Assembly (NCBI GenBank): GCA_963514005.1
Contig: OY740819.1
Span: 20,832,001 to 20,896,000 of the forward strand
Direction of reading: 5' to 3'
Length of the DNA stretch: 64,000 nucleotides
DNA from: Raja brachyura
Taxonomy: Eukaryota
In this document: positions 30,501 through 33,500 of the stretch, piece by piece
Position numbering within the stretch: position 1 is the first letter of the stretch
Layout: every line of letters starts with the position of its first letter
Notes under the pieces: generated by a model
What the model saw: the letters and a program-made list of their open reading frames with translations, nothing else
What the model was told of the DNA's origin: nothing
The model's database searches: none
Made by a program: the position numbers and the translations under genes

Positions 30501-33500
30501 CTTTGTAGTGTACAACAGCAGCTACTATGCAATTCCTCCAAAGCATGCATCTTAGAATAGTCTCAAACTCGAACACATGCTTTTTGCAAACACATTGCAT
30601 TTGTTCAATCTGATCTGTTGACGTAAAAATCGGCATGCTCAAAAAGTTCTGGAAGATTGTTCATAGTTTCAAATCCATGACGTGCTGATTAGGCCAATGC
30701 ACTGATGGAAAGCTAGTTGACAAGTCTAGCCACTGAGGTCATGGTTCTACTCGAGTGCACCCATGAATTGAAATAACTTTTCATAAGACAATTACAGTAA
30801 CTATAATCATATGGGAGTAAGGGTACAGAGACCAGAAAATGAGATTTGAAGCGGGGCTGACACGAGTCTCAGCTGGACAGTCAAAGTTACCTCAATACCC
30901 CTTAGGAAGGGAGGAAAGTGAATCACTCGGGCGTCCTATTTCTAAATGTATCAAGAACTTATTGGAAACCAAAATACAAGTTAAATCAAAATGAATATAG
31001 AATCTGAACCACCGGCAACAAATTAAATAATCAACTCAGACACATGATCACTAAACACTGCACCTCATCTCACATACAGCATTAAATTAAGCAAAGTGTT
31101 TCCCCATTAATATCCCAAGGTCACCTGGGTTTAAAATTCTGACTGCGGTTAGAGATATGGATAAATTAAACACGTTAATTTCACCACAAAATAAAACTCA
31201 GCAGTTTTGGTCTCACCTCCAGGGCATCCCTCCTACTCTGTGTTAAAGAGCCCAGAGTGTCCCAATGGTCACAAATCGTCTGGCATCGAGCATTTACATT
31301 GGGAGAGTCGTAATAATCCAAATCACTGCAGAAAACAAATGACAAATTTTTTAAAAAGAGATAGAACACTACAGGATTCTGGATATTTCACTTCAATCAT
31401 TTGATTAGATGATTCAACTTGCATTAGAGGAAATATTCACTTTGTTCTTATTCATTAGAGCATAATAATGGTTTGTAAATTTCTGACTGCAGAAGCATTC
31501 AAACAGTGGGATCAGTTATAAAACCTGGCCTTTAATGTTGAATGGCAGCATGGTTGGTGCAAACAATCATATTATTGTGCATACTTGAGCTCTTGTGCGA
31601 TGGCAGCGATCTGCTCCACTCTGTCTTGGTGTGCTGCCAGATCACTCTCAAACGCTTCGTGTTTCTTGAGCAAGGCCTTGATGTCAGCCAGTGCTGCCGT
31701 TTCATAGTCTTTCTGTGTCAACATTACTTCTTTATCTGTAGGAACAGGCAACAAGGGTAATATTTGCACTACCATTCAAGAGCCAAGCGACCCAAAATGT
31801 CACCAATTCCTTCTCTCCTTAGATGCTGCCTCACCCGCTGAGTTACTCCAGCATTTTGTGTCTACCAGCCAAGCGATGATGCTGGTCAGGTTTGAGCTTT
31901 GGCTCAGTTGGATACTTTGCTTAAATCTGAGGTTCAAATCCTATTAGAGACGCCATAAAATGCAATGCTGGTAGTACAGTTGCAGCAGTGAAGGAGTGCT
32001 GGTGTCATAGGTGGCATCTTTTGTAGCAAAGTGTAACTCAAGGTCCAGCTCACTCAAAAGGCAGAAGGAAACAAACACACACTATCTCTAAAAGGAGCAT
32101 GGTGTTTGTCCTTAGCAATATTCTACTAAAAAAAACCTGGCCATTATCACATTGCTGGTGATTATTCAATCCATCTCAAATTGTCTGCTATTTACATTTC
32201 CACCCACTTGTGCTTGGAAAATAACTAAATTGCTTTGATGACAATCTTATTAATTAGAGCAAAACTTCATAGGTACAACCATCTCAGACATGGAAATTAA
32301 TGAGAAGGTCCATTTCAGAGATTGCTTGAATTATTAAATGGTGTAACAGCTCAACCATACATTCACTTGTAAAGTTATACACATGGCCCTTAAGCGTTTC
32401 TCTAGAGAGAGCACTAAACTGTTGTAAATGATTAGTGATTGTGGATGCCATCTCCCTGGCCCTTTACTGATCCCCAAAACATCTGGATAATGGACACCAG
32501 GCTCCTGTTTATTGTCCATAGCTCTGACTTACACTCCTCAATTCCAACCAAAAGTTTAAACTCCAGAGCCACGGACTCAGCACACCTCCCAGCAAGCAGA
32601 TCAATCATTATTCCTGACCCACAGACTGCAATCAGCAAGTAACACCTCTGCCAAATCCCCATTTACCCTGCAAGGCTGCATTCTCAGCCTCTTGGTATTC
32701 TCCCCACACACACCTACTACTTTGTTGACAAATTCTACTCCAACGTCACCTGCAAGTTTGCAGATGACACCACCGCTGTGGGCTGGATCTCAAAAAACTC
32801 CAAGATGAAGTTCAGGAAGGAGTGGAGAGTTTAGTGGCATGGGGCCAATTCAACAACCACCCCCGCAATGTCGCAAAACGAAGGAGCAGGTCATCAACTT
32901 CAGCAAGCAGGGTAGAGTACACACCCCAATCTGCATGGTGCGGTACTGGAAACGGGGTGGAAGATTGCAACCTTCACGTGGTCCGCCCCGTTTCGACTAA
33001 TGCAATCAACTCGACTTGCACAAACGGAAGATCAAATAGAACAAGTTGTCCTACAACTTTAGGCTGTGCACGCCACACGAAAGAAGGTGGTGCTGGAAAC
33101 AATCTGGTGCTTCAATTACTCGGTGTAAACATCAACAATTTGTCCTGGTCCAACCACATAATGCTACGGTCAAGCACACCAATGTCTCTACTTTCTCAAA
33201 AGGCTGAGAAAATTCAGCAGGTATCCAACAAGTCTTACAAAATTTTACTGATACACCATAAAAAGTCATATGCAAATGCTTCATAGCTTGATATAGCAAA
33301 TGCTCTGCCCCATGAAATTGCAGCGTTGCGAATGCTGCCTGGTCCATCATACAGATCAGCCTACCCTTCACTGACTCCTCCCTTAATTCTCATTGCCTCC
33401 TGAGAGCAGCCAACGTAACCATGGGCAGTTCCCACCACAGTGATACTCTTCTCTCCCTCAGACAAGTAATGAAGAATTATTGATCTCCAAAACTACTTTA

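Follow-up and report, generated by a model that had tools for sequence, protein, structure and literature searches.

In the literature on which we draw here, the short retroposons closest to the element of this study come from trypanosomes, where NARTc shares 77 nt at its 5' end and 30 nt at its 3' end with the long interspersed nuclear element (LINE) L1Tc, and a ribozyme like that of hepatitis delta virus (HDV) cuts just before position +1 (PMC3383444, PMC4035085). NARTc/L1Tc and RIME/ingi exemplify the short internally deleted elements (SIDEs) of the Ingi clade, i.e., non-coding derivatives that keep the two ends of their LINE. A 5' ribozyme combined with the 3' end of the parent LINE is also described for R2 SIDEs and RTE-N elements (PMC3414825, PMC5786205), and internal-deletion derivatives are known for Vingi (e.g., Vingi-1_EE derivatives, SINE2-1_ACar and SINE2-1_AMi; PMC5786205, PMC4494074), the sister clade of Ingi (PMC13708176). 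Here, we describe an element of this plan in a 64-kb stretch of Raja brachyura DNA (the whole stretch analysed, hereafter the window): a retroposon of about 135 nt at 32954-33086 that joins the two ends of an apparently Vingi-type LINE, which we call V1, and whose first 54 nt are predicted to fold as an HDV-like nested double pseudoknot without helix P4. We hold with good confidence that an internally deleted V1 derivative headed by a self-cleaving ribozyme best explains the sequence as a whole.

Exactly three full copies were found in the window by blastn, in agreement with the original prediction made from the letters alone: 32954-33086 on the plus strand, 1186-1317 on the plus strand (94.7% identity) and 1636-1768 on the minus strand (88.7%). 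The target site duplications (TSDs) of 11-14 bp claimed for each are present in all three, perfect in copy 2 only, and the (GAA)n tail, likewise claimed for each, is very short in copy 3. In the following, numbers with the letter L denote fetched loci.

32954..33086, plus strand: copy 3 of the bipartite, non-autonomous, apparently Vingi-type retroposon (sequence and blastn)
32940..32953, plus strand: left TSD of copy 3, 14 bp, two mismatches against 33087-33100
33087..33100, plus strand: right TSD of copy 3, pairing with 32940-32953
32954..33040, plus strand: 5' part, derived from LINE V1, whose 5' end it matches clearly at positions ~1-72/77 and in gapped alignments as far as 82-88 (L124, L125 and L127 at 84-89%)
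33041..33050, plus strand: junction of ~10 nt without V1 match, complementary to the neighbouring 3' part and forming a 7-bp hairpin in the minimum free energy (MFE) fold
33051..33086, plus strand: part from the 3' end of V1, with the last three codons, the stop at 33060-62, a short 3' untranslated region (UTR) and (GAA)n (L113-L117 at 86-92% over 35-36 nt to copy 3)
1185..1323, plus strand: copy 1, beginning with A instead of G; TSD 1173-1184/1324-1335, 12 bp, two mismatches
1629..1768, minus strand: copy 2, of a second subfamily, with mismatch A4.C33 in helix P1; TSD 1769-1779/1618-1628, 11 bp, perfect

As regards a partner LINE, a loose contig end suggested that at 33051 the tail is preceded by a coding sequence. 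A pattern scan of the genome assembly (G000; 2.70 Gb in 1,647 contigs) located the element tail behind letters other than those of the short element at 117+106 = 223 sites, with 0 sites for the reversed pattern, and nearly all of the 100 matches listed of these 223 shared one constant upstream sequence. All four tail sites fetched were 3' ends of a LINE open reading frame (ORF) with a C-terminal CCHC motif and had 35-36 nt plus the tail in common with the element (89-92% to copy 3). A word-index protein search with the V1 C-terminal piece yielded 0 of 2 candidates; HMMER returned 287 relatives. The homologues P0164, P0234 and P0263 (999-1,030 aa) carry an endonuclease domain as well as one for reverse transcriptase, and an RNase H domain was matched in none of these three full-length proteins. 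Both the endonuclease start and the C-terminus of V1 match them, the V1 reverse transcriptase being presumed from these homologues, and the ~2.8 kb from endonuclease to stop at G000:C3:62232254-62235057 provide an argument from length only with respect to RNase H. In L117, the endonuclease start is joined to the shared tail, which defines family V1. On the 5' side, three of five V1 5' regions (L124, L125, L127) contain the element head but not its tail. The identity is 84-89% across 63-71 nt, and the head precedes the endonuclease frame by 40-50 nt; the other two, L117 and L126, are interrupted by other repeats.

Because both ends match V1, the element can be read as the V1 5' end (~72-87 nt), a junction of ~10 nt and the V1 3' end (36 nt) followed by (GAA)n, and sequence comparison indicates that it almost certainly derives from V1 by internal deletion. 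The proposed use of a LINE by a non-autonomous retroposon has thereby gained a concrete partner that shares the element's 5' end (in three of five regions) and 3' end (at 223 sites). Rather than a short interspersed nuclear element (SINE), the element is better called an internally deleted LINE, or SIDE. At the motif level, the V1 homologues presumably resemble Vingi. An endonuclease and a reverse transcriptase without RNase H is also the layout described for Vingi (PMC13708176), so that V1 appears to be Vingi-type, not RTE or R2. Compared with NARTc (263 nt, poly(A), partner ribozyme L1TcRz with P4), the element is shorter (135 nt), ends in (GAA)n and has no P4, and it differs from NARTc/L1Tc further by a vertebrate-type host, parent homologues without RNase H and a family of ~20,000 or more copies. 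The known Vingi derivatives are alike in arising by internal deletion of a Vingi LINE, from which the element is set apart by the lack of a tRNA head. R2 SIDEs and RTE-N elements belong to different LINE clades; the head described here is much shorter and there is no targeting of ribosomal DNA.

Two further features of V1 were observed. Its endonuclease frame opens right after an in-frame stop and without ATG in five of five copies (L117, L124-L127), and an out-of-frame ATG 17 nt upstream starts a short overlapping ORF in four of the five, which suggests non-AUG initiation or frameshifting, as has been proposed for ribozyme-headed LINEs. Moreover, the V1 5' part and the tail lie on opposite strands at G000:C3:36750744-36751626, C2:130809839-130810605 and C3:62232023-62235057, suggesting 5' inversions.

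The proposed ribozyme fold was examined with a sequence-agnostic HDV descriptor, in which nothing is prescribed apart from U20, G25, a P1.1 pair and C-N-R-A. In copy 3, the paired (P), joining (J) and loop (L) regions lie where they had been placed:

32954..33007, plus strand: predicted P4-less HDV-like fold (descriptor, sub-threshold Rfam match over the same interval, cross-family pairs), predicted cut 5' of G32954
32954-60/32983-89, plus strand: P1, 7/7 pairs in copy 3
32961-62, plus strand: J1/2
32963-69/33001-07, plus strand: P2, 7/7 pairs in copy 3
32970-72/32980-82, plus strand: P3
32973-79, plus strand: L3
C32975-G32990, plus strand: P1.1
32992-96, plus strand: 5-nt loop replacing P4
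32997-33000, plus strand: J4/2, with the catalytic C32997 first
32997, plus strand: catalytic-position cytosine C44, a C in 85/89 copies and in 6/6 family heads tabulated

Copies 1 and 3 alone match the strict descriptor in the window, and copy 2 joins them when one P1 mismatch is allowed. There were 0 matches in 12 Markov simulations of the window (both strands) and 0 matches on the window itself with the catalytic C changed to U, A or G. According to the descriptor, the element head contains the nested double pseudoknot of P1, P2, P3 and P1.1, in copy 2 with one P1 mismatch; the claim that the first 54 nt carry every HDV element stands for copies 1 and 3 and fails for copy 2 at A4.C33. A correction concerns P4, which had been described as shrunk to U-UUCG-A behind a J1/4 of GU: because just 7 nt (32990-96) separate P1 from the catalytic C, one U had been counted twice, and P4 is absent. 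The gap from J1/4 to the catalytic C is 5 nt in the element and in V1 L125, as against 36-46 nt in three other Vingi-type heads. MFE folding, a method that cannot represent a pseudoknot, returned only P1 and part of P3. The letters of L3 are, as we take it, the same as those of the CPEB3 ribozyme. As a marker this loop is not diagnostic, because that of the Vingi-type head L123 is near-identical and a bacterial Rfam model aligns the same loop.

The nearest described folds are the minimal ribozymes drz-Mtgn-1 and theta, which lack P4, have the P1/P2/P3/P1.1 layout and carry the catalytic C first in J4/2 (PMC10879173). According to that study, nearly 99% of minimal HDV-like ribozymes are in phages, often at tRNA 3' ends, their origin and function being otherwise open, and its search, which took in human, mouse and protist genomes, gave only 12 bacterial theta matches (PMC10879173). 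The element shares the P4-less layout and differs in that its fold heads a nuclear retroposon; assignment to the theta class was rejected, as there is no cut at a tRNA 3' end in a phage, no tRNA lies in the window and the flanks are unrelated host DNA. With the mammalian CPEB3 ribozyme (RF00622), the head has in common the numbering, the G1.U36 wobble, U20.G25, a P1.1 with one G-C pair, in CPEB3 accompanied by U-U, and a 4-nt J4/2 (PMC4836649); CPEB3 differs in being a single intronic locus with a P4 hairpin, and its model matches the L123 head weakly and the element head not at E up to 10.

The fold of the head appears to be supported more strongly by other LINE families than by the copies of its own family. 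Among seven Vingi-type 5' regions fetched, three fit the strict descriptor, with distinct P1 and P2 sequences and a P4 region of 36-46 nt:

L119, position 130: HDV-like head
L120, position 158, minus strand: HDV-like head
L123, position 177: HDV-like head

The 836-kb Markov control gave 0 matches. L121 contains the L120 head in inverted orientation; of the remaining regions, L117 is interrupted and both L118 and L122 are partial. Across six family heads, P1 has 7/7 pairs in each (mean 2.8 with strands swapped), P1.1 occurs as C-G, U-A and G-C, and in four Vingi-type heads P2 has 6/6 pairs (3.25 with strands swapped). The five LINE heads other than that of the element keep P1 and P1.1 with different sequence, and many compensatory changes are seen across the six heads, some of them owed to the choice of heads with the descriptor. 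Its construction accounts neither for the location of the heads at the 5' ends of LINEs nor for the null rate. The L123 head matched several Rfam models below their cut-offs, namely CPEB3 (24.1 bits, E 0.0016, cut-off 35), HDV-F-prausnitzii (E 0.028) and HDV (E 0.25); no ribozyme model matched in the other five loci scanned, L125 included. In all, L118-L123 stand for at least four further Vingi-type families in G000, and the three with L119, L120 and L123 each open with a complete HDV-like head in which P4 is long.

The family is abundant and its 5' end is uniform. An exact 23-mer from the ribozyme core occurs at 3,306+3,319 = 6,625 sites in G000 (reversed control 0) and a tail 23-mer at 3,284+3,251 sites. 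The initial 38.5 Mb of C1 contain 83 head sites and 100 tail sites, and 25 of the head sites have a tail site as partner; by capture-recapture, independence assumed, this corresponds to ~21,000-26,000 copies. We examined 89 copies, made up of the 30 best matches to each of copies 3 and 2 and of 29 copies from the first 30 core-pattern sites, one site being a duplicate. These 29 core-pattern copies, chosen without regard to the 5' end, form the less biased set. TSDs of at least 9 bp (10-16 bp) flank 60/89 copies as against 10/881 mismatched flank pairs, offsets of 0 to -2 being allowed, and in 49 of the 60 the TSD ends directly before G1. The predicted cleavage site therefore coincides with the element's 5' end, as the original prediction had stated from three copies, and it is likely that ribozyme activity sets this end. 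Dispersed copies with TSDs of variable length also agree with a SIDE. Core nucleotides are highly conserved (U20 89/89, G25 86/89, C44 85/89, A46 and A47 89/89), with positions 17-39 fixed by the way of sampling in 29 of the 89 copies; pairwise identity in the 29-copy set is 89% over positions 9-76. Four head positions are the main variable ones, namely 4 and the structure-neutral positions 8 (J1/2), 36 (G-C or G.U) and 45 (N in J4/2). The reported variation of the first P1 pair between G-C, G-U and A-U was seen; its changes are one-sided, partly at CpG sites, and do not amount to covariation.

Some observations on the copies stand beside these results. The base preceding G1 is T in 47/89 and G in 16/89 copies, reflecting either a target-site preference or a cleavage-linked bias. 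Neighbouring, inverted or head-to-tail element copies occur at L084, L085, L049 and L013, and G000:C1:14795970-14951904 holds twelve tail matches on one strand, spaced roughly 7-27 kb, which probably represent a tandem segmental duplication carrying one copy. Sampled element words were found in sequencing runs of nine organisms, with half or more of the words in five. Contig runs from four organisms have loose ends at 32954 and 33086, with poor flank agreement (0.37-0.45) in the deep runs X1 and X3. Two runs on record as RNA hold fewer than 5 element words, and a metagenome pattern scan for the element gave 0 matches.

Several findings weigh against a functional ribozyme head on a Vingi derivative. 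The anticipated covariation across genomic copies did not appear: in an alignment of 21 of the 29 distinct core-pattern copies, the three window copies and L125, none of 18 pairs showed a two-sided change among 17 distinct heads, and the 96.4% of cells paired equal the shuffle mean (L066, L068, L076, L079, L080, L083, L084 and L088 were excluded for a truncated or shifted 5' end, and L086, a duplicate of L084, was excluded throughout). In the less biased set, P1 is perfect in 19/29 copies, has one mismatch in 4/29 and two or more in 6/29, mostly short 5' truncations, while the whole head is perfect in 16/29 and near-perfect in 22/29. Variant A4, which breaks P1, is found in 16/89 copies (1/29 in the less biased set), and this mismatch subfamily has spread. 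The 7/7 P1 pairs of L119, L120 and L123 are partly there by construction because the descriptor demands pairing, and the RTE-A and RTE-B heads, which have the same core, possess a weaker P2 with only 3 contiguous pairs, to which RTE-A (L099-L102, L111, L112) adds an A.A mismatch at the first P3 pair, its fold being atypical or degenerate. Nothing in Rfam reached the gathering score in the window, and the CPEB3 model gave no match to the element head at E up to 10. The best match at the locus was HDV-F-prausnitzii, which covers exactly 32954-33007 and, at 18.5 bits (E 0.21), stays below its cut-off of 44. Because these models include P4, the sub-threshold score speaks against assignment to the curated Rfam families rather than against the fold. 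In addition, V1 was pieced together from partial copies and is classed by domain layout and by motifs that we take to be Vingi-like rather than by a tree of named references. The 24 runs listed were all contigs; for the four examined, an RNA origin is a guess, and the ends of molecules are not visible in them.

On the account that we favour, internal deletion of V1 produced a bipartite retroposon with ~80 nt of the 5' end, 36 nt of the 3' end and (GAA)n. A copy within a transcribed region could be read through by host RNA polymerase II, and the first 54 nt of the transcript would fold as the P4-less nested double pseudoknot for which the family comparison speaks. By analogy with the known HDV mechanism, the RNA would then be cut just before G1, with C44 as catalytic base, freeing a unit with a fixed 5' end regardless of the upstream flank. 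The V1 protein, with its apurinic/apyrimidinic (AP) endonuclease and reverse transcriptase, would recognise the shared 3' end, and target-primed reverse transcription, presumably in trans, would insert the RNA and leave TSDs of 10-16 bp. As the RNA is very short, most copies would be inserted at full length, with the ribozyme retained. Self-cleavage of the head is a prediction of this model.

Another option could be a dual head comparable to Pr77, which would act also or mainly as an internal polymerase II promoter, so that the transcription start sets the 5' end; this is compatible with a ribozyme. Because the same 77 nt are promoter and ribozyme both in L1Tc and NARTc (PMC3383444, PMC4035085), it is a live alternative to the promoterless unit originally proposed, the more so as ~20-30 nt of LINE sequence are retained past the 54-nt fold and the P1-mismatch subfamily spread nonetheless. 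A promoter, however, needs no P1, P2 and P1.1 kept through compensatory change across LINE families, and we regard this possibility as real, if on the doubtful side. Less probable, and in our view unlikely, is a vestigial ribozyme that worked in the ancestral LINE but is either inactive in the short element or not needed there; the copies would then be full length merely by shortness. The missing within-family covariation, the loss of P4 and the P1-mismatch subfamily would fit, and G37-C44 and U38-A43 could close a UUCG hairpin hiding the catalytic C; yet this hairpin costs 1.8 kcal/mol relative to P1+P3 alone, all core nucleotides are kept, and natural P4-less ribozymes are active in vitro (PMC10879173). 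Moreover, since TSDs abut G1 in 49/60 copies, the template RNA started at G1.

A polymerase III-transcribed SINE with a degenerate tRNA-type head, a borrowed LINE tail and an incidental pseudoknot would account for the shortness, the TSDs, the LINE-like tail and weak B-box-like 9-mers with one mismatch each at +51 and +77. That the head is V1's own 5' end largely refutes it; furthermore, in keeping with the reported lack of A and B boxes, ARAGORN found no tRNA gene in the window, and even the best matches contain mismatches, 2-3 for the A box and 1 for the B box. This reading is highly improbable, and membership in the tRNA-derived SINE2 class was rejected together with a polymerase III promoter, no tRNA-like A/B-box head being present. 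An RTE-clade LINE as source or mobiliser, as in known RTE-N elements, is scarcely credible either: RTE-A has the same (GAA)n tail type, and the P2-P3-L3 core of the element agrees with the heads of RTE-A and RTE-B at 17-19 of 19-21 nt, but the 3' ends of RTE-A (8 copies) and of RTE-B (2 copies), the latter with a (TAAG)n tail, show no significant blastn similarity, and both element ends match V1. RTE-A and RTE-B were accordingly rejected as partners, as was RTE-N membership, which would entail a 3' end in common with an RTE LINE.

The genome does contain an RTE-N example of its own. A second bipartite element of ~290 nt derived from RTE-B (L107:31-330, L108:31-330, on G000:C1) has an HDV-like head, a (TAAG)n-like tail and short apparent TSDs. 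The RTE head pattern occurs at 380 sites in G000, and most of the 100 matches listed of these are of the L107/L108 head type.

Trypanosomes and R2 already provide the plan of an internally deleted LINE headed by a ribozyme, so that the element does not represent a new kind. As far as the literature searched shows, both an HDV-like head on a Vingi-type LINE and a eukaryotic head of this type that lacks P4 are new: no ribozyme was assigned to Vingi in the ribozyme passages of literature naming both, and no description of the element family appeared in the literature listings searched, although the family or a Vingi ribozyme may be recorded in Repbase, Dfam, patents, supplements or further key papers.

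If cleavage is confirmed, Vingi-type LINEs would be added to the clades that bear ribozymes. This would fit the origin of bipartite derivatives from Vingi and would matter for the Vingi-1 gene-writing systems, in which the native 5' UTR is retained (PMC13708176). The head would then be a natural 54-nt P4-less HDV-like ribozyme with a clear role in a eukaryotic nuclear genome, phages having been almost the only described home so far (PMC10879173), and its more than 20,000 copies would serve as a library of natural variants, the G1-C36/G1.U36 switch among them, with which selection against intronic sense copies could be tested directly. We regard as evenly balanced the wider reading that Vingi-type LINEs as a group start with HDV-like ribozymes and that the P4-less one of V1 is active, the first with a defined job in a eukaryote, at >20,000 sites able to cut host pre-mRNAs. 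With the added clause that CPEB3 is such a head domesticated, this reading becomes quite improbable; the CPEB3 link would rest on a short, apparently convergent core. Vingi remnants are present in the human genome (PMC5753468).

Apart from the element, the window holds fragments of two other LINE reverse transcriptases at 5697-6458 and 35477-36148, both on the plus strand, which by their motifs we take to be CR1-like and Rex1/Babar-like, respectively. Tandem units of 66 nt and palindromic arrangements characterise an abundant short repeat at 2180-2443 and many other places, e.g., 13913-14118, 16237-16459 and 48033-48275.

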